Of a stretch of DNA of 64,000 bases, positions 1 to 25,976 are shown piece by piece; within the stretch, counting starts at the first letter, position 1, and each line of letters starts with the position of its first letter. The position numbers and the translations under genes are program-made. The notes below the pieces were generated by a model. It had not been told where the DNA came from and made no database searches. It was given only the letters and a program-made list of their open reading frames with translations. Source of the DNA: Armatimonadota bacterium (GTDB taxonomy: Bacteria; Armatimonadota; HRBIN16); assembly GCA_963677485.1 (NCBI GenBank), contig OY781964.1, positions 2,144,001 to 2,208,000 of the forward strand, read 5' to 3'.

Positions 1-1360
1 GAATGACGGCTGGGAACAGTACCCCCAGCAGGTAGTCCTTTAAATCCACCCGGAACTTCGCACATGCCATGCGTACGACATAAAGAAGGTTGACGAGGAT
101 GGCAGTTAACAGTGTGCCATACGCCACACCGTTCAAGCCGATCCAGTAACCCAGCAGGAAGCTGAATCCGATGTTGACGGCTATTCCCAGAACAGCCGCC
201 TTGGCAGCCATTTTGTGAAAGCCGGTCATGGCAAGCACCATAGAGGCTACTTCCTGCAGCATCGATATGGACATGGCCGTGACGAGGATGATGAGCACGG
301 GCCCTGCTTTCACGAAATGTTCACTTCTCATCCAGGTGACGATCAGGTGGGTGCCCAGCGTATAGATGACCACGGTGATCATGATGGTGATGGCCCAGGC
401 ATATTTACTGCCTCTCAACAGCACATTGCGGATGGCCCAGAAATCATCTTTGCCTTTTAACTCAGCCACATAGGGCGACAAGACATTCACGACCTGCTTG
501 GTCAGCAGGTAAAGTGTCTCCGAAATCTTCAAGGCGATGCCATAATAACTGACCTGCATGGTGTCTTTGAGCACCAGGTTGACCACAATGGGGTCGGTGC
601 GCAGATATACCAACGCAGCCACATTGATCACCAGTTGCGTGGCACCAAAGCTGGCGGCTTCCCGCAGCAGTTTGGGATCCCACTTCCGTGGATCAATGTG
701 CAGGCGATCCACCAATTTGTAGCTGAGCACGACGAATGGCAGATTATCAATGAACAGGCACACCAGGTTGACTATGGCCAGTGCCACCATGCGGTCTTTG
801 ATGGCCAGACCGCTGGCTGGTGAGAGCACATACCAGCCAATGAGCGCATAACTTGTGGCTGCGATCGCTTGATAGACGTTGATCATGCTGATGCGCTGTT
901 CGCCAAAGAGGATGCCGCGGAACATGGCCAGCGGTAGCCCAAGCGTGACGAACCGGGCGAGCAGGATATAATAGGTCAACATCGAGGCTCCCTGCCGGTC
1001 GACAGGGATGTGCAGGGTATGCAGCATGATCAGCGAAAACAAAATACCGACTACGGTAGTTCCTGCAGATATCCACAGATACACAGCGGCAAAGGTGCTA
1101 AGCATCTTGTTGCGGAATTCTATATCGCCGCTGCCCTTGCAGTGCGCCACATACTTCACAACGCTGGTGGCGAAGCCGAAGTCGGCCAGACCGAAAATAC
1201 CGACCACAGACATCACCAGAGTCCATATACCGAACTCACGTTCGCCCAACTGTCGGACCATGTATGGGGTGTAGAAGAAGAAGATGATGATGGTCAGCAG
1301 TGTCTGAAGATAGTTCGACACGCTGTTTTTCATGACTGTTTTGACGCTGTCGTCGTTCAT
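1..1360 (-). CDS. Wzx-type polysaccharide flippase, runs off the window edge
   Basis: Manual translation from ATG at 1360: MNDDSVKTVMKNSVSNYLQTLLTIIIFFFYTPYMVRQLGEREFGIWTLVMSVVGIFGLADFGFATSVVKYVA, a typical flippase N-terminus. ATGA overlap with the upstream gene's stop. Absent from the ORF track, presumably because its stop lies outside the window. Confidence 0.85.
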   Translation of the reverse strand, partial: MNDDSVKTVMKNSVSNYLQTLLTIIIFFFYTPYMVRQLGEREFGIWTLVMSVVGIFGLADFGFATSVVKYVAHCKGSGDIEFRNKMLSTFAAVYLWISAGTTVVGILFSLIMLHTLHIPVDRQGASMLTYYILLARFVTLGLPLAMFRGILFGEQRISMINVYQAIAATSYALIGWYVLSPASGLAIKDRMVALAIVNLVCLFIDNLPFVVLSYKLVDRLHIDPRKWDPKLLREAASFGATQLVINVAALVYLRTDPIVVNLVLKDTMQVSYYGIALKISETLYLLTKQVVNVLSPYVAELKGKDDFWAIRNVLLRGSKYAWAITIMITVVIYTLGTHLIVTWMRSEHFVKAGPVLIILVTAMSISMLQEVASMVLAMTGFHKMAAKAAVLGIAVNIGFSFLLGYWIGLNGVAYGTLLTAILVNLLYVVRMACAKFRVDLKDYLLGVLFPAVI

Positions 1361-20329: not shown

Positions 20330-21265
20330 ATGCGTTGTAACCAGGCTATCATGTCGGCGTTTCTGGCTCACCCCCGCTATCGCAGCTATATCACATCACG
20401 TGACCTGCTGCATACGGCCGGTGCCGAGGCCGCACGGTTCGCGTCACCTGAAACGGCGCGGGCGATCATCGGGCTGCACACAAGCGACCTGGTGGCCAAT
20501 CAGCTTAAGTCCGGGCTGTGGAAGCAGAATTCGCGGGGCAAGAAACCGCACCAGTATGCTGTTTCGGTAGGCATACTCTGCGCCATCGAACGGGCTGGGA
20601 TGCTGACTGAGATCGGCTCCGAGATTTTACCCCTGCGTTACGATCCATACCGCCCATTTTCTGAGCTCGAAGACCGCCATGGTGTGCTGGTAAGGCGCAT
20701 GTTCGGCCGTTCTCGCCCTGAAGATTCCGCCCTTGCCCGTCGACTGAACCACCAGATCACTGACAACCAGGCATCGGATGGGAGCTGGGGCGGTACGATT
20801 GTGGAAACTGCATACGCCATCGAGCATCTACTGGAACTGGGTGACGCACCCGACTCGAGTGCTATTAAACGGGGAACAAGCTGGCTGTTGGCTCAGTATC
20901 GTGACACTGTGGAGCGGCAGGGCATTTATGTGCCGAGTCTGTTTTCGAGCGGTGATGGCGGCTCTGAACTCGCCAGTGCTCAACGAGTGATACCGGAGGC
21001 CATACCTGTGTTTGCCTGTTATGGGGTGCTGCCGTTGATCCCCACCGGTCTGGCACTGCGTGTGCTTGTGGCCACAGGATACGGCGATGATGAACGCGTG
21101 ATCGCCTCGTTTGAATCACTGCGGAAAATGGCGATACCGGTCGACGCTGCGGCAGGTTCGGGCATCAAAGGCTGGTGCTCGCATACCTGCAGGGATCTCC
21201 TGCTGGGTGCCAAGAAGGCCGATCACCAACACCGCAGGCGGTTAGCCACGCTGCCGCGGGTTTAG
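20330..21265 (+). CDS. Hypothetical protein with prenyltransferase/squalene-cyclase-like repeat
   Basis: QASDGSWG and GTSWLLAQ resemble QW repeats; GGAGG RBS; the last codons and stop lie inside the downstream repeat. Confidence 0.55.
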   Translation: MRCNQAIMSAFLAHPRYRSYITSRDLLHTAGAEAARFASPETARAIIGLHTSDLVANQLKSGLWKQNSRGKKPHQYAVSVGILCAIERAGMLTEIGSEILPLRYDPYRPFSELEDRHGVLVRRMFGRSRPEDSALARRLNHQITDNQASDGSWGGTIVETAYAIEHLLELGDAPDSSAIKRGTSWLLAQYRDTVERQGIYVPSLFSSGDGGSELASAQRVIPEAIPVFACYGVLPLIPTGLALRVLVATGYGDDERVIASFESLRKMAIPVDAAAGSGIKGWCSHTCRDLLLGAKKADHQHRRRLATLPRV

Positions 21266-21499
21266 TCACCCCACGAATGGGGTTCCCTCACCGCGCGTCT
21301 AGGCATTTGCAGCCCGCAAGCGGGCGCAGGATGCACTCCGCCCGCGAGGCGTAGGGGCGAACGGCGTTCGCCCTGGGGCCACCGAACCCGTCGACACGGG
21401 GCTGATCGCACACATCGCAGGTTACTCGTCAACGCTGCCGCGGGTTTAGGCATTTGCAGCCCGCAAGCGGGCGCAGGGTGCCTCCCGCCAGCGAGGCGT
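21244..21499. repeat. Tandem copies of the composite repeat; the second is interrupted by IS110
   Basis: ACGCTGCCGCGGGTTTAG...GCCCGCAAGCGGGCGCAGG...GCGAGGCGTAG occurs twice; only the first continues into GGGCGAACGGCGTTCGCCC. Confidence 0.85.
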
Positions 21500-21514
21500 A
21501 GATACTGTGGCTTT

Positions 21515-21520
21515 TGTCAA
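21515..21520 (-). promoter_or_regulatory. -35 half of the IS110 circle-junction promoter
   Basis: TTGACA near the right end; after circularisation it lies exactly 17 nt from TACGCT (23309-23304). Confidence 0.8.
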
Positions 21521-21772
21521 GTCCCCAGGGGCAAATCTGGGGATTTGGACCTGAATATCAGACACTGGCTCTAGACCACGTAGAATAACGTTAATGTGAT
21601 GTTTGTGGCATATAGACCAAACCTGGATCCGCGACAGAAACAGGCTCAGATGGCATCAGTTGGTCCGTAGCACCTCACATGACGCTCGGAGTCGCGAACG
21701 GACGTGCGACATCTTCGTGGCTTCGAAAGATATCGTTATGCTTCGATGCGTGCTATCGGCAGACTGCCGCAG

Positions 21773-23065
21773 CTAGGATACTGGTGTCAGAACCCTCGGT
21801 TTGTTGCCCACCCGACTGCGCGATGGCCGGTTTCGGGATGCGGGCCGACCACCGCCGGCAGGAGTGGGCTCATTGGTGGGATTTCCATCCACGCATCCCC
21901 GTCTTGGAACGCTCACGTCCAGCCCAGGATCATTGCCTACACCGGCTATATCATGGGCCGCTCCGGCACGATCCTGGACATGTCCGTTCGCGTCGGTCAG
22001 CGGTTGCTGGTTGGCCGCATTTGAAGCTTGTTCGATGCCGAAGTTTGGATCATATGGCTGACGGCTGATTAATACCGACCACATGAGCACCAGCTGCTTG
22101 CGCATGATTGCGCGCCGGACAACTCGCTTGGACTTCGGTTTCTTATTGGGATTCTTTACCAAATTCGGATGCTGCAGTTCCTTCACGAAGTCGTGCATGC
22201 TCTGGCCAAGCTTTTTCGACTTACCGTTGACCATCTTCACCACAGTGCTCGATCCACAGTAGAGTAATGTCCGCATATATCGGTCACCCATCTTGGATAT
22301 GGAGCCGTCGTATGTCTTGCAGCTTCCTGACCGTTGCGGGCAGGGGTTCATTCCGAAATAGCGCGCGACCGCTTTCGATGTTTCAAATCGTTTAGCATCA
22401 CCGATTTTCGCAAGGAAATAGCTTGCTGTGACGTCGCCGATACCCGGAATGCTCTTCAGCAGAGCCATATCTTCGGTCATCTGCGGTGAACTCATCACAA
22501 GCTCTTTGATCTGAACATCAAGCTTTTTGATGCCCATGTCATGAAAAGCGATCATCTCGTCCAGCACTGTGCTCCGCGTAAGCCGACAGCTTTGGCGCTG
22601 GGCGATCGCCTGTCTGTGTTGCACCAGCATACGGCGGTCATTGGTGTAACCAATAAGCGCATCATAGCATGCTAGACGAGGGACATAGAGTGAGACATTG
22701 TGACTTTTCACATAGTCAGCGATTAGCACGCTGTCAGAGCAGTCCGTCTTTTGTTCCCAGCCTTTGGCTTTGCGGTGATAGAGAACCCGTTTTGGCTCCA
22801 GTTGGACAGCATCGTGCTGGTGCTCGTAGAGGTAATCAAGCAGCGGTCGGCTGTAAGGCCCGGTGGCTTCAGCCGCATACAAGGCGGGAGTTCGGGTAAG
22901 CTTCTTCACCCATGACAACAACTCCTTGTATCCGGCCTTGTTGTTCTTGAACTCCTTATGGTCTATCGGCTTGTGCGATGAACCTAATACAGACGCGTCA
23001 AACGTCAATTTCGAGATGTCGATCCCGACATAATGGATGTAGATTTTGTCTTCAACTTCGTGCAT
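21773..23065 (-). CDS. IS110-family DEDD recombinase/transposase
   Basis: VGIDISK, AEATG, KTDCSDS (D-E-D-D), SIPGIG, QRSG (catalytic Ser region), ISKMGDRYMRTLLY; ATG 23065 with GGAGA RBS. Confidence 0.95.
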   Translation of the reverse strand: MHEVEDKIYIHYVGIDISKLTFDASVLGSSHKPIDHKEFKNNKAGYKELLSWVKKLTRTPALYAAEATGPYSRPLLDYLYEHQHDAVQLEPKRVLYHRKAKGWEQKTDCSDSVLIADYVKSHNVSLYVPRLACYDALIGYTNDRRMLVQHRQAIAQRQSCRLTRSTVLDEMIAFHDMGIKKLDVQIKELVMSSPQMTEDMALLKSIPGIGDVTASYFLAKIGDAKRFETSKAVARYFGMNPCPQRSGSCKTYDGSISKMGDRYMRTLLYCGSSTVVKMVNGKSKKLGQSMHDFVKELQHPNLVKNPNKKPKSKRVVRRAIMRKQLVLMWSVLISRQPYDPNFGIEQASNAANQQPLTDANGHVQDRAGAAHDIAGVGNDPGLDVSVPRRGCVDGNPTNEPTPAGGGRPASRNRPSRSRVGNKPRVLTPVS

Positions 23066-23099
23066 GTGGTAATCTCCAGTTGGTAGTGATTGATGGTGC

Positions 23100-23297
23100 A
23101 ATCAACCAAATCAGCCTAGCGAACACGGGGTTTTCTCCCAAGATACTGTTCGATATGGGTTGATTGGGAGAAGGATGCCTATCTACGTCACGGTGTTTTC
23201 CACCAGGGGCGGTTCCGGCATCCAATCCTTCTCCTTCACCCCCAGCTAAGGGGTGAGATTAGCTCCCCGACTGCTTTTGGTGTCCGGGGAGCTCACC
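23100..23297 (-). ncRNA. Predicted IS110 bridge RNA
   Basis: Two 5' hairpins, then a target loop with ACCGCCCCT (23213-23205) and ACGTAG (23188-23183), and a donor loop with ACAGTATCT (23149-23141) and CGCTAG (23121-23116). Each loop is closed by a stem and split by a small hairpin. RNA ends are estimated. Confidence 0.88.
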
Positions 23298-23310
23298 ATA
23301 TATAGCGTAC

Positions 23311-23460
23311 TAGGGGCGTTTCGCGAAACGCCCTTCGTGCGTCACAACCGGCCAACTGTCTCGGATGAGATCATAAAAACCCTCGCGATGGGGGCGTACC
23401 ACGGTGGATGGTGTGGCCGTTCCGCCTGCGAGAAGGGCGATTCGCGAATCGCCCCTACGT
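23311..23460. repeat. Inverted pair of GTAGGGGCG-type REP-like palindromes
   Basis: TAGGGGCGTTTCGCGAAACGCCCT (23311-23334) and AGGGCGATTCGCGAATCGCCCCTAC (23434-23458). Confidence 0.8.
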
Positions 23461-23501
23461 ACGCGCACACCGCAGCCGGCGTTCCCCTCCGGTCGCGCGG
23501 C

Positions 23502-25976
23502 CTACCGCTTGAGCATCACGCTGGTCATGGACGCGGGCTCCATGGGAACCGTCACGTTACCGATCCGCTTCATCACCGCCTTGTCGTTGTGGTTATACAC
23601 AATCACCTCTTTGGAGGGCAGCAGCGTGCAATACACACCGTCAAAGGCGGTATCCACCTCGACGGCGTTCTTCAGATGCTTGTCCAGCGAGGACAGATGG
23701 TAGACCACGTCGCGAAGCAGCTCGTAGTATCCCAGCTTGGCTTCCCACATGCCGCAATAGTAGATGCTGTAGCCCTTGCCCAGGGGATTAGCCCAGATCG
23801 CGTTGCCCTCATCGGTCTTGGCTAGCGGAATTACTGTGCTGGCTAACCCGGTCACCGTGCGGTCGACGGTAGTGTTGTGCGCATACTGCAGCAGCGGGGA
23901 GTTGCCCACCGCCTTCCCACCCTTCACCACGGTCAGCTCCTTGGAGAATCCAAACAACTCATACCATTTTGAGAAGTCACCATCGATAGTGGCCATGGGC
24001 CCAAAGTCGCAGGAAACCACCACACCGCCCGCCTTCACCCATTCGGTCAACCGCTGCATAGTCGTGTCATCCACCAGGTTCCCTTCGAACAGCACCAGCA
24101 CGCGGTAGCCCTTCAGCGCACCATCGTTGATCAGGTTGTCATCAAGGATGTCGTAGTCGATGACGTCGCGGATGGCGGATGCACCGTCCACAAGCATGGC
24201 GGGCATAGTGGCCTCAGGATGGAGCAGGAGGTCTGTGGTCGGCCAGAACACCGCCACATCCACCACGGGGTGTTCCTGCGTGAGGTAGGCTTTGTATTTG
24301 CGGAACACATCCGGCGATCCGGTGGGGTTGGCACCCCAATCCCAGAAGCCATATGCGCCGCTGGAGATCGACTCAAAGATGCGGCCCACTTCACCATTGG
24401 CGGTGATGCTGCCTGGCGGTTCGGTCCAGAATGGCACTTTGTAGTATTTGCACGATGTGGCCAGAAGGCGCATCATCGTGGCGTAGTTCTGCGGCATTGG
24501 CAGGTATCCGCCGTGGGTTGAGCGAATATGGGTGTTATACTTTTTGGCGATCTTGGCATATTTGGTATGCTCCATGCCAAGCTTTACGTTGACATCGCCG
24601 CCGCCCACCGGGATCTCCAACAGCGACTTCGGGAAGTACTTCCGTGCCATGCTGGCCACGTCCTCGGTGAGCCGGGTCATAGATCCGTTATACCAGTTGA
24701 TGAAGTCCAGCCAGCGATGGCGTGAGGCTGGGCTATCGATCTTAGGCACCGGCAGCGGGTAACTGAGCTCCATGAAGTATTGGTACTGTGTGCCCCAGGC
24801 TCGGTTCAGGGCGTCGATGGTGGTGTATTTGGCCTGCATCTTCATTCGGAAGTCGTGTTTGGCATATTTATCGCCGCACCACCAGTCATCATGACCGGCA
24901 CCATCGACACCAAACCTCGGGATCTCGCTGGGATGCATACCTAGCGGGTAGATGGTCTCGCCGAAGTCGCCGTGGACGCCTAGATAGATCGCCTTCATCT
25001 TGTCGTTGCCAGAGCCGTAATGGGCTGCCATCGCCTTATAACCGTCGTCCATCATACCCACAAGGTAGGGGCTCCAGACCGACATCGCGCCGATCTCTCT
25101 GCCGTGCGTGATACAGGTAGAGGGCACAAACTTGCTGGTCTTCTTCTGCCACTCGTTCGCCCAGTGCAGGTGCGGGAAATACTGCCAGTCCACGCCTATC
25201 TGTCTGCATCGGTCCAGTTCCGCATCGGTCACGCTCCAGTCCCACACGCCGGGTTCCGTCTGGTTCGTGGCAAGGTGGTCGGAGTCGGTCTGGAACATGG
25301 TGAAGCCGATGCTCTTCGCCTTTCGCATCTCGCGGAAGCTCATGATGCTGGTGCCTTGCGCTATGGGCTTGCCTGTCTTGCCTGCTCTCTTTACGGGCAC
25401 TACCACGACGGCGGCCCGTTTGGTCAGTTTGGGCACATCGGCCTGTGTCACCAAGCCGTCAGGGGTGATCTCTTCATCGGTGATCAGCAGCGCGTCGACG
25501 TAAGTCAGGTAAGCCTTCTCGTTGTTCTTGCGCCGCTCATTCACCATGATCGTGATGGTGTGCTGACCTGCGGAGAGTTTCTGCAGTCCCAGACGCTGCC
25601 AGGCCATGGCATTCGACACCCCGAATATCGTGCTGTCCTCACCATCCATGTCGTCCGAGACATGGTGGTAGGCACCACCGTCCACCCGCCACCAGAAGTT
25701 GGAGGTGCCGCCTGGCATGGCGATGGCAGTCAAGAGGTGGTAACTGCCCGCCTTTTTGACACTGAACTTCCAGTTCGCGGCGTAGCCCTCTTTTCCGGGG
25801 TCGGTATTCATCCACAGCCGCAGCACCTGATCGCCACTGACAACCCCCGGGAAGCGCTCCACCCCCTCGAAGTTTCGAGAGCTGGTGTTTTCGCCTTCAA
25901 TAAAGATGCGTTCCGCATGACAAGCAAGAGGCATCGTCAGCATCAGCCCTAACGCGAGTGCCCAAATATACTTCAT
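23502..25976 (-). CDS. Secreted glycoside hydrolase, GH42/GH14-like TIM barrel with trimerisation-like domain
   Basis: Signal peptide; PGVWDWS, GDFGET, KYTTIDALNRAWGT, RWLDF, WTEP, L.GYRVLVL....WVKAGG. Confidence 0.65.
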   Translation of the reverse strand: MKYIWALALGLMLTMPLACHAERIFIEGENTSSRNFEGVERFPGVVSGDQVLRLWMNTDPGKEGYAANWKFSVKKAGSYHLLTAIAMPGGTSNFWWRVDGGAYHHVSDDMDGEDSTIFGVSNAMAWQRLGLQKLSAGQHTITIMVNERRKNNEKAYLTYVDALLITDEEITPDGLVTQADVPKLTKRAAVVVVPVKRAGKTGKPIAQGTSIMSFREMRKAKSIGFTMFQTDSDHLATNQTEPGVWDWSVTDAELDRCRQIGVDWQYFPHLHWANEWQKKTSKFVPSTCITHGREIGAMSVWSPYLVGMMDDGYKAMAAHYGSGNDKMKAIYLGVHGDFGETIYPLGMHPSEIPRFGVDGAGHDDWWCGDKYAKHDFRMKMQAKYTTIDALNRAWGTQYQYFMELSYPLPVPKIDSPASRHRWLDFINWYNGSMTRLTEDVASMARKYFPKSLLEIPVGGGDVNVKLGMEHTKYAKIAKKYNTHIRSTHGGYLPMPQNYATMMRLLATSCKYYKVPFWTEPPGSITANGEVGRIFESISSGAYGFWDWGANPTGSPDVFRKYKAYLTQEHPVVDVAVFWPTTDLLLHPEATMPAMLVDGASAIRDVIDYDILDDNLINDGALKGYRVLVLFEGNLVDDTTMQRLTEWVKAGGVVVSCDFGPMATIDGDFSKWYELFGFSKELTVVKGGKAVGNSPLLQYAHNTTVDRTVTGLASTVIPLAKTDEGNAIWANPLGKGYSIYYCGMWEAKLGYYELLRDVVYHLSSLDKHLKNAVEVDTAFDGVYCTLLPSKEVIVYNHNDKAVMKRIGNVTVPMEPASMTSVMLKR

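Follow-up and report, generated by a model that had tools for sequence, protein, structure and literature searches.

An IS110-family element with a predicted bridge RNA at REP-like palindromes of an Armatimonadota bacterium

The element, its recombinase and its copies

The analyzed window is a 64,000-nt stretch of the genome of an Armatimonadota bacterium (HRBIN16; assembly GCA_963677485.1, contig OY781964.1, positions 2,144,001-2,208,000, forward strand). Its minus strand carries an IS110-family element of 1810 bp, designated IS-A (window positions 23311-21502), with CT on either side. The element is composed of (i) a non-coding left end (LE), (ii) a recombinase gene and (iii) a non-coding right end (RE), and is devoid of terminal inverted repeats (AGTAC... 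versus ...CAGTAT). The junctions were found exactly where the first-pass annotation of this DNA had placed them, with AACGCCC-CT-AGTAC on the left and ACAGTAT-CT-ACGCC on the right (Table 1).

Table 1. Features of IS-A and its flanks (window coordinates). LT and RT, left and right target; LTG and RTG, left and right target guides; LDG and RDG, left and right donor guides.
Feature	Position	Strand	Remarks
Left target LT, AACGCCC	23314..23320	minus	3' arm of REP-like palindrome; fits LTG at 6/7 plus core
Left-junction core CT	23312..23313	minus	CT in 12/12 copies
Left end LE, 246 nt, non-coding	23066..23311	minus	encodes the predicted bridge RNA; invariant in 12 copies
Putative -10 box TACGCT	23304..23309	minus	LE nt 3-8; TATGCT at the same position in IS-B and IS-C
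5' stem-loop, AGCUCCCCG / CGGGGAGCU	23261..23293	minus	from the fold; helix 1 has 5 pairs with compensatory change
Target-binding loop stem-loop	23167..23234	minus	outer stem 23234-23217 / 23180-23167
LTG ACCGCCCCT	23213-23205	minus	target loop
Inner hairpin GGTG-GAAAA-CACC	23204-23192	minus	target loop
RTG ACGTAG	23188-23183	minus	target loop; followed by handshake AU, 23182-23181
Donor-binding loop stem-loop	23100..23165	minus	stem AATCAACC/GGTTGATT, 23165-23158 / 23107-23100; inner hairpin
LDG ACAGTATCT	23149-23141	minus	donor loop
RDG GU + GCUAG	23124-23123 + 23120-23116	minus	donor loop; by IS621 template
Handshake bases GC	23115-23114	minus	donor loop
Recombinase CDS, 430 aa	21773..23065	minus	RBS GGAG, 23077-23074; DEDD RuvC-like and Tnp domains
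Conserved long imperfect hairpin, ~50 bp	21880..22021	minus	codons ~351-394, start of the C-terminal extension
Right end RE, 271 nt, non-coding	21502..21772	minus	contains the -35 box and left donor
Putative -35 box TTGACA	21520-21515	minus	in RE
Left donor ACAGTAT	21502..21508	minus	terminal RE bases
Right-junction core CT	21500..21501	minus	CT in 12/12 copies
Right target RT, ACGCC	21495..21499	minus	RTG pairs with CTACG

The recombinase matches PF01548 (DEDD RuvC-like; E 1.8e-21) and PF02371 (Tnp; E 3.9e-22). Its best relatives of solved structure are IS621 (E 2.3e-28) and ISCro4 (E 4.6e-26), with ~30% identity over 265 residues. The catalytic residues D16, E66, D108 and D111 align with D11, E60, D102 and D105 of IS621, and S246-G247 with S241-G242; these four acidic residues and the catalytic serine-glycine are invariant in all nine recombinase sequences. 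The closest protein relatives (P0001-P0005) share 94-61% identity with the IS-A recombinase, and their DNA was absent from the results of both collection scans. A tblastn search against plasmids returned 3386 matching records, all below 60% identity (best 30.7%), with no IS621 by name among the matches. An AlphaFold model based on the nine-sequence alignment had a mean pLDDT of 59.5, falling below 40 in the C-terminal tail.

Twelve near-identical copies of IS-A, differing by at most a few bases, are present in the host genome, and the bridge-RNA region is the same in every one of them. Ten of the ORFs are intact and two are frameshifted. One 16-bp frameshifting deletion is common to two copies at different loci, which shows that a defective copy was mobilized in trans. 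In the assembly of a public run (X1), IS-A appeared as a single collapsed unitig of 1820 nt, with a depth of 117 compared to ~8-15 for the flank pieces. No circle or empty-site joint across IS-A was listed in the assembled contigs of four public runs, a form of the data from which rare forms are dropped. In RNA runs, the fraction of words present was 0.05-0.11.

The two frameshifted copies might suggest that IS-A is a dead relic, and that segmental duplication or homologous spread, not guided transposition, produced its 12 copies. We regard this as very improbable, given that the right flank is different for each of the 12 copies and their ends are identical and precise, and that a search for flanking DNA common to the 12 copies beyond the REP revealed none. 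Moreover, ten ORFs are intact, the divergence among the copies is near zero, and the guide predicts the insertion sites (see below). We consider IS-A a genuine, probably active bridge recombinase element that has apparently transposed recently.

Bridge RNA, guides and target sites

In the predicted fold, the LE forms a 5' stem-loop and two further stem-loops, each of which contains a large internal loop; the bridge RNA is predicted to start near position 23297, and its last stem ends at 23100. The minimum free energy was -88 kcal/mol (z = -3.45), and none of 200 shuffled sequences was as stable. Folding of this region had been proposed in the first-pass annotation, and the minimum-free-energy structure indeed yields the stems of both guide loops, which sit where they had been claimed (the motif CGCTAG corresponds to 23121-23116).

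Four guides were identified in the LE: LTG (ACCGCCCCU), RTG (ACGUAG), LDG (ACAGUAUCU) and a discontiguous RDG (GU..GCUAG), together with the handshake bases. The match of LDG to the right end (9/9) and that of LTG to the flank of the window copy (8/9) were both as originally described, and LTG matches the commonest genomic flank, found in 6 of the 12 copies, at 9/9. With regard to the right guides, the complementarity of RTG to CTACG was upheld, while that of RDG to CTAG had been understated: the IS621 template gives seven donor bases (CT-AG-T-AC), in a pairing that contains one G.T wobble and a bulge of two RNA nucleotides. The target-loop handshake AU, located after RTG, pairs with donor A6 and T7. 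The donor-loop handshake G, located after RDG, pairs with target C7, and the second base, C, is unpaired with target C6.

In a consensus structure of five elements, 93.4% of the cells were paired (33-47% in slid controls) and 12 pairs showed compensatory change (0-4 in slid controls), counts which refer to a structure derived from the same five sequences, four of them close kin, with most of the compensatory pairs representing a single split. A scan of positions 21000-24000 against Rfam 15 identified no family at E ≤ 1, and thus provided no curated model for scoring the predicted IS-A bridge RNA. A full-text literature search for the 9-mer ACAGTATCT produced, among the matches listed, only unrelated texts. 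The RNA layout and every guide fit the IS621 scheme as published (Durrant et al., 2024; Hiraizumi et al., 2024), in agreement with the architecture first proposed for this locus, and IS-A may fairly be considered a candidate programmable recombinase.

A putative promoter, TTGACA-17-TACGCT, recognized by its match to the consensus, is present only across the RE-LE (circle) junction; in the integrated copies the -35 score is 1-2/6. The -10 box is weak (3/6), which counts against the bridge-RNA explanation. The following cycle is proposed by analogy with the IS621 literature. Rare excision would join RE to LE through the CT core, producing the predicted circle junction ...TTGACAAAAGCCACAGTAT-CT-AGTACGCT..., and this would rebuild the promoter and raise the levels of bridge RNA and recombinase. 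The donor loop would hold the junction ACAGTAT-CT-AGTAC and the target loop would hold ACCGCCC-CT-AC at the foot of a REP-like palindrome. A recombinase tetramer would then swap strands at CT, aided by the handshakes (AU with donor positions 6-7, G with target position 7). The 3' half of LTG (GCCC-CT) and RTG (CTAC) would read a terminus common to many REP-like families, with LTG positions 1-3 picking the REP-like sub-family.

Comparison of the flanks across the genomic copies, another check suggested in the first-pass annotation, showed that the insertion sites obey the guides, in a pattern common to all 12. The CT core was present in 12/12 cases, the 7-nt LT had at most one mismatch in 11/12, and the right side began with AC in 11/12. 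The LT was ACCGCCC in six copies, ATCGCCC in three, and AACGCCC, CCCGCCC and CCGCCCC in one each. Two observations count against the bridge-RNA explanation: the copy at G000 2863787 has three LT mismatches, and the right flanks past AC do not track RTG, the third base being G in only 4/12. The perfect 11-nt target (ACCGCCC-CT-AC) occurs nine times in the genome, with six sites occupied; the three empty ones are a further point against the bridge-RNA explanation. Within the REP family, six perfect sites were occupied and one was empty, compared to four occupied and 16 empty sites with one mismatch (Fisher p = 0.004).

Ten of the 12 copies are inserted at one palindrome, GGGCGNTTCGCGAANCGCCC, which bears out the earlier suggestion of retargeting to another REP-like family. 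The target repeat is a short extragenic palindrome, present in many copies and with a conserved GTAG head. A census revealed ~38 loci of GGGCGNTTC[G/T]CGAANCGCCC (76 hits, counting two strands) and 197 sites of [CT]GCCCCT-ACG. Three PF01797 (Y1/RAYT) genes were found, and neither GTAGGGG[CT] nor its complement occurs within 1.5 kb of them. Since no RAYT gene is flanked by the target repeats, the target is referred to as REP-like.

The position of these ten copies, at the 3' foot of a single palindrome family, raises the question of whether the RNA guides and the structure of the REP hairpin together determine the target, with the guides alone being insufficient. The remaining two copies adjoin short G+C-rich palindromes (as judged by eye), the sole perfect 11-nt target that is not part of a palindrome (G000 2591099) is unoccupied, and a preprint on ISPpu10 reports a "sequence-structure dual-match logic". 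We nevertheless consider such a joint requirement doubtful: perfect guide matches are rare outside REPs, hence sequence and structure are confounded here, and IS621 was reprogrammable to non-REP targets (Durrant et al., 2024).

The agreement between guide and flank can also be followed in four related elements, which carry other left-target guides, each fitting its own flank. The LTGs of the five elements read ACCGCCC, CGCGCCC, GTCATCC, GTGGCCC and CGTGCCC, and their flanks, in the same order, ACCGCCC, CGCGCCC, GTCATCC, GTTGCCC and CATGCCC; in this small sample, the own flank was the unique best match in four of five rows and tied in one. One of these elements, IS-C, is present in nine copies, with a perfect LT in six and one mismatch in three. 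RDG covaries with the left end, as GU..GCUAG with AGTAC (IS-A), AU..ACAAG with TGTAT (IS-B and IS-C) and AU..GCAAG with TGTAT (IS621). The flank pattern shared by the 12 copies and the matching LTGs of the four relatives therefore indicate that the agreement between guides and flanks is more than chance. We conclude that IS-A is, with high probability, an autonomous IS110-group insertion sequence which, like IS621, transposes through recombination guided by its bridge RNA.

REP sites that contain CT and the first 7 nt of LE without the element also exist (half-junction sites). The orthologous locus of one of them in the sister genome differs in REP content, and the flanks of the other are not syntenic. 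An alternative scar form, CTAGTATCTAC, was rejected, as neither of its two occurrences is at a REP.

A hairpin in the C-terminal extension

A conserved, clade-specific hairpin of ~130 nt was identified within the C-terminal extension of the recombinase ORF, a region predicted to be disordered. A search with its covariance model (R1), which covered 100 of the 102 distant IS110 loci (all except L054 and L158), yielded one chance-level hit (E 0.44). The literature was searched for IS110 elements with a tail or hairpin, and no paper relevant by its title or the start of its abstract was returned. An ORF antisense to the tail, 129 aa long in IS-A, was rejected as a gene: its length is not conserved (~46 to 152 aa), and the ratio of synonymous to non-synonymous changes over the tail is 33:60 in the antisense frame versus 25:78 in the sense frame.

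The hairpin could derive from a palindromic element that once inserted at the terminus of the ancestral gene; as a relic, it would simply be translated through without contributing to transposition. Consistent with this, the tail (aa 342-430) is predicted to be disordered and lacks a third-codon-position excess (changes 33/51/33, compared to 183/118/349 in the core), and the IS621 protein terminates approximately at the residue that corresponds to the beginning of the hairpin. However, the pairing is kept between lineages only ~45% identical in protein, with seven compensatory pairs versus 0-1 in slid controls, DNA conservation between IS-A and the IS-B group reaches its maximum at the hairpin (0.70-0.71), and the ORF is open throughout in all nine proteins. 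In view of these features, we find a relic possible, although rather unlikely.

More speculatively, and with a still lower probability, the sense-strand hairpin of ~130 nt in the 3' ORF extension of IS-A, IS-B, IS-C and their metagenomic kin may represent a third module, conserved at the nucleic-acid level and additional to the recombinase and the bridge RNA, which could act in the transposition cycle or as a control point for the recombinase; the half-junction REP sites might have been generated by half-site recombination or might serve as substrates for it. A single-stranded circle has been reported for IS621. The hairpin could, for example, act on such a circle (second-strand priming), or serve as an RNase or ribosome control point.

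Comparison with known bridge systems

Bridge recombinases have been thoroughly described as a kind, and published work has already analyzed thousands of orthologues in this way. IS-A is a new member of this kind and opens no new question by itself. It is a divergent and apparently active natural system, ~30% identical to IS621, in which four guides and the handshakes are readable and can be checked against 12 insertions in one genome and against sister elements. The published model thereby gains a clean natural control and engineering, possibly, an extra orthologue. A specialist might be surprised only by the hairpin inside the ORF and by the half-junction REP sites.

IS-A resembles IS621 of Escherichia coli (PDB 8WT6) in (i) both protein domains and the catalytic residues, (ii) a left-end RNA with a 5' stem-loop, target loop and donor loop, (iii) a 9-nt LTG, an RTG reading CTAC(G), the left donor ACAGTAT-CT and the CT core, (iv) a discontiguous RDG with one G.T wobble, (v) the target-loop handshake AU and the first donor-loop handshake base G, and (vi) a promoter split across the junction and a natural target in the form of a REP "GTAG head". 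The supplement of Durrant et al. (2024) gives the IS621 donor as ACAGTATCTTGTAT and the target-loop specificity as ATCGGGCCTAC; these sequences agree with the comparison drawn in the first-pass annotation, in which the left donor was identical and the REP target different.

The two elements differ in several respects. Protein identity is ~30%, and the recombinase has 430 aa in IS-A versus 326 in IS621. IS-A measures 1810 bp, while the non-coding RE-LE of IS621 is 298 bp, including an LE of 191 bp (Durrant et al., 2024). In IS-A, the 5' stem-loop and the target loop are separated by an additional stem-loop, the right donor of IS-A is AGTAC (TGTAT in IS621), the last LDG base pairs (U against A), and its target is ACCGCCC-CT-AC, compared to ATCAGGC-CT-AC. 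It also carries the conserved hairpin inside the C-terminal extension. ISCro4/IS622 (PDB 9T56), the second-best solved relative, is alike in architecture and differs from IS-A as IS621 does; ISCro4 is described as active in human cells.

By their description, ISPpu9 and ISPpu10 of Pseudomonas putida are similar to IS-A as multi-copy IS110 elements in repetitive extragenic palindromes. ISPpu9 is described with a separate small-RNA gene downstream of the transposase, whereas the downstream structure of IS-A lies inside the ORF. The IS1111 group (seekRNA type) has the protein family and the RNA-guided logic in common with IS-A. In contrast to that group, the guide loops of IS-A are simple internal loops that precede the gene, an arrangement that characterizes the IS110 group (Durrant et al., 2024).

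The IS-A element and its copies

The IS110-family element of the window, termed IS-A together with its near-identical copies, contains a single long ORF (see table). Its product carries both IS110 transposase Pfam domains (PF01548 and PF02371), and the only solved relatives detected at E ≤ 0.001 were the bridge recombinases IS621 (E 2.3e-28) and ISCro4 (4.6e-26). Residues D16, E66, D108, D111 and S246-G247 align with the catalytic residues of IS621 named in Hiraizumi 2024, and are invariant in an alignment of nine clade members; the IS-A recombinase is ∼100 aa longer than that of IS621. No relatives were detected at E ≤ 1e-40 in 59 further genomes drawn from the family and the phylum. A large protein database yielded seven relatives at 94-41% identity, beyond which identity was ≤ 30%. 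The public run X6, labelled as an anaerobic digester metagenome, contains a 1772-nt contig ∼94% identical to IS-A; a protein relative, P0001, was noted alongside this contig, and relatives of 61-84% protein identity exist only on short metagenome contigs.

The host genome (G000), a single 5.22-Mb contig of 54% G+C, carries 12 copies of IS-A, of which 10 are 1810 bp in length. The copies show six single-base differences in total, none within the first 246 nt, and all 12 have the core dinucleotide CT on both sides. Two share a 16-bp deletion (element positions 685-700) that splits the ORF. The occurrence of the same deletion at two loci implies that a defective copy has been mobilised by recombinase supplied in trans.

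The seven bases to the left of the core were ACCGCCC in six copies, ATCGCCC in three, and AACGCCC (the window copy), CCCGCCC and CCGCCCC in one each. The right flank started with AC in 11 copies (followed by G in four, A in four, T in two and C in one) and with AT in the remaining one. Ten of the 12 copies are inserted at the 3' foot of members of a single family of palindromes, GGGCGNTTC[G/T]CGAANCGCCC.

Coordinates of IS-A, related elements and associated sites (G000:C1, contig of the host genome; G001, a genome of the same genus; L-numbers, extracted loci)
Feature	Location	Strand	Remarks
IS-A, 1810 bp	window 23311 (AGTACGC...) to 21502 (...ACAGTAT)	minus	CT on each side
Recombinase ORF, 430 aa	window 23065-21773	minus	ATG preceded by GGAG
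Junction -35, TTGACA	14-19 nt from right end		
Junction -10, TACGCT	left-end nt 3-8		
Long imperfect hairpin, ∼50 bp	window 22021-21880	minus	codons ∼351-394, in 3' extension of recombinase ORF
Same hairpin in sister elements	L042:2509-2664; L022:2518-2673; L046:1976-2131; L048:1329-1484		
Deleted IS-A copies	G000:C1:1369196-1370989 and 1871161-1872954		different loci, different perfect targets
IS-B copies	L016:1431-3145; L014:∼2108; L203 (G000:C1:2667500-2672600)		
IS-A-type solo sites	G000:C1 near 2010708, 2851066, 2869711, 2382961, 1990839, 264921, 3436709		
IS-B-type solo sites	G000:C1 near 3495663, 2307945, 1083735		
Solo-site loci in G001	L169, L172, L173, L176, L177, L184, L192, L200		

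Predicted bridge RNA and junction promoter; sister elements

The 246-nt non-coding left end folds more stably than any of 200 shuffled sequences (z = -3.45) into four parts: two long stem-loops containing internal loops, preceded by a 5' stem-loop and a second, small one. These match one for one the IS621 bridge RNA and design template presented in the Durrant 2024 supplement. The first-pass annotation had reported a bridge element here from sequence alone; its ends, CT cores and guide loops were all read where it had placed them, and its interpretation as an IS621-type recombinase is supported by the protein domains, the catalytic residues and this correspondence of RNA parts. Its statement that IS621 shares the left donor but has a different REP target is borne out by the same supplement, which gives the donor as ACAGTATCTTGTAT and the target-loop specificity as ATCGGGCCTAC; the wild-type target in the genome is reported as ATCAGGCCTAC.

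The left target guide (LTG), ACCGCCCCU, corresponds to the commonest left flank plus core (9/9), and the right target guide (RTG), ACGUAG, complements CTACGT. The AU directly following the RTG forms the target-loop handshake guide, which complements AT at donor positions 6-7 rather than CC at the same positions of the target; according to Hiraizumi 2024, a handshake complementary to the donor and not the target favours strand exchange. The left donor guide, ACAGUAUCU, corresponds to the right end plus core (9/9). The right donor guide (RDG) consists of GU, a 2-nt bulge and GCUAG; its partner is CT-AG-T-AC, and a G.T wobble occupies the position that it has in IS621 (where AU..GCAAG pairs with CT-TG-T-AT). 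In the donor-loop handshake, the first base, G, pairs with target C7, and the second, C, is unpaired with target C6.

When the right and left ends were joined in silico, TTGACA was placed 17 nt from TACGCT, the split junction promoter arrangement described for IS621. When integrated, each of the 12 copies offers this -10 only a -35 scoring 1-2/6. According to 2026 work on IS621, bridge-RNA expression from integrated copies is weak and excision is inefficient while insertion is efficient, and a preprint describes mainly single-strand excision, i.e. copy-and-paste. The 12 near-identical IS-A copies would fit this picture.

Two related elements, IS-B and IS-C, carry TTGACA-17-TATGCT at the same place. 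IS-B, whose protein is ∼45% identical to that of IS-A, is present in two copies in the host genome; in copy 2 the recombinase gene is broken by a ∼2.5-kb IS21-family insertion that encodes IstB and an IstA containing rve and Mu-transposase C domains. The LTG of IS-B is CGCGCCCCU; the element has the IS621 donor, ACAGTAT-CT-TGTATGC. IS-C occurs in nine copies in G001, and two more sister elements lie on two metagenome contigs. The LTGs of the five elements differ, each fitting its own left flank at 7, 7, 7, 6 and 6 of 7 bases; the own flank was the unique best match in four of five cases and tied in one. The RTG, ACGUAG, is common to all five, as are right flanks that begin with ACG (8/9 copies for IS-C). 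The RDG of the sister elements, AU..ACAAG, complements CT-TGTAT at their left end exactly, while IS-A has altered both. In the five-sequence alignment, in which four sequences are close kin, a curated 52-pair structure was 93.4% paired, with 12 compensatory pairs, versus 33-47% and 0-4 when partners were slid.

Further end features were observed. Left-end nt 1-8 complement the RBS region (UGUAUGCU with AGCAUAC; A2 columns 2-8/240-246) in IS-B, IS-C, L046 and L048, more weakly in IS-A (2/7 pairs broken); such pairing would require read-through transcription of an integrated copy. In the right end (window ∼21700-21730, minus), all five elements have a small hairpin with a conserved stem (ATCTTT/AAAGAT) and variable loop, and a second hairpin immediately precedes the -35 box.

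Guides and genomic target sites

The host genome has 64 occurrences of the 9-mer ACCGCCCCT, 12 of them as the guide itself inside copies. The other 52 are followed by the element (6), AC (3), AGTACG without the element (3) or other sequences (40). Perfect 11-nt targets were occupied in 6/9 cases, and one-mismatch 11-mers in 3/25 (ATCGCCC), 1/7 (AACGCCC) and 1/45 (CCCGCCC). Within the palindrome family only, 6 perfect sites were occupied and 1 empty, versus 4 and 16 one-mismatch sites (Fisher p = 0.004, a value that overstates independence since the sites are related repeats).

As reported for IS621, the effective right guide of IS-A comprises only 4 nt (CTAC). These bases complement the GTAG head common to many repeat families of this genome, and therefore the 3' half of the LTG together with the RTG reads a generic repeat terminus; judging from the sequences, it is LTG positions 1-3 that would choose the repeat sub-family. 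There are 197 [CT]GCCCCT-ACG sites in the genome. None of its three PF01797 (Y1 transposase) genes has this repeat within 1.5 kb.

The genome is dense in REP-like (repetitive extragenic palindrome) families ending in GCCCCT-ACG (e.g. 27 ACGACCAG and 20 ACGACCGT). An empty target, ATCGCCC-CT-ACGT, which differs from the LTG at one base and matches all 6 nt of the RTG, lies at window 23435-23460 (plus), ∼140 bp from the IS-A left end and in opposite orientation, and the REP variant TTCGCCC-CT-ACGCC is located at ∼21350-21375 (minus).

Some REP-like sites carry CT and the first 6-8 nt of an element left end, followed by unrelated DNA, without the element. Seven such solo sites of IS-A type were found in the host genome (perfect left target in three, one mismatch in two, three mismatches in two of one repeat family), along with three of IS-B type; six of IS-C type were found in G001. 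They are far commoner than chance predicts (∼0.4 AGTACG expected among 1586 [CT]GCCCCT sites). Three other relatives without these elements showed no excess of such sites over a control pattern. The solo sites may represent footprints or products of half-site recombination, a process of the kind described in two 2026 preprints; alternatively, they may be variants of the repeat head to which the element's end is similar. G001, in which IS-A was not found, also contains eight CCCTAGTACGC sites; the two inspected were both REP-flanked. Three 23S rRNA gene copies (G000:C1 near 197328, 2015239 and 3003231) carrying GGGGTCGCCC-CT-AGTACGAGAGGACC were rejected as coincidental look-alikes of the left junction.

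The embedded hairpin and relation to known bridge recombinases

Residues 342-430 of the IS-A recombinase are predicted to be disordered, in a model weak overall (mean pLDDT 59.5). In four IS-B-type genes, changes by codon position numbered 33/51/33 in this tail versus 183/118/349 in the core, and the lack of a third-position excess appears to reflect a nucleic-acid constraint. The corresponding DNA contains a long hairpin conserved in all five elements (50 pairs; 94.8% paired versus 24-37% when slid; seven compensatory pairs versus 0-1; single-sequence z-scores -3.2 and -4.8). No other DNA stretch is as well conserved between IS-A and the IS-B group (0.70-0.71 identity). The consensus energy (-59.1 kcal/mol sense versus -47.7 antisense) and three invariant G.U pairs favour the sense strand. 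Of the possible explanations, one in which the hairpin controls or stabilises the recombinase mRNA ranks first, though tentatively; a relic palindrome that is read through is somewhat less likely, and a role on a single-stranded DNA circle, or any other role, would be improbable.

A covariance model of the hairpin did not detect it in any of 100 distant IS110 loci (best E 0.44); among the loci sampled, the hairpin is specific to the IS-A/IS-B/IS-C clade. A single full-text search found no such hairpin in the IS110 literature, which does not imply absence from print. The C-terminus of the IS621 protein falls close to the start of the hairpin.

On this sequence evidence, IS-A is a divergent member, probably active, of the IS110-group bridge recombinases. 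It adds a member to a known kind and is not itself a new kind. In Durrant 2024, 2,201 donor-RNA and 5,511 target-RNA pairs were analysed, and the supplement includes at least one reconstructed target with AACCGCCC-CT-AC.
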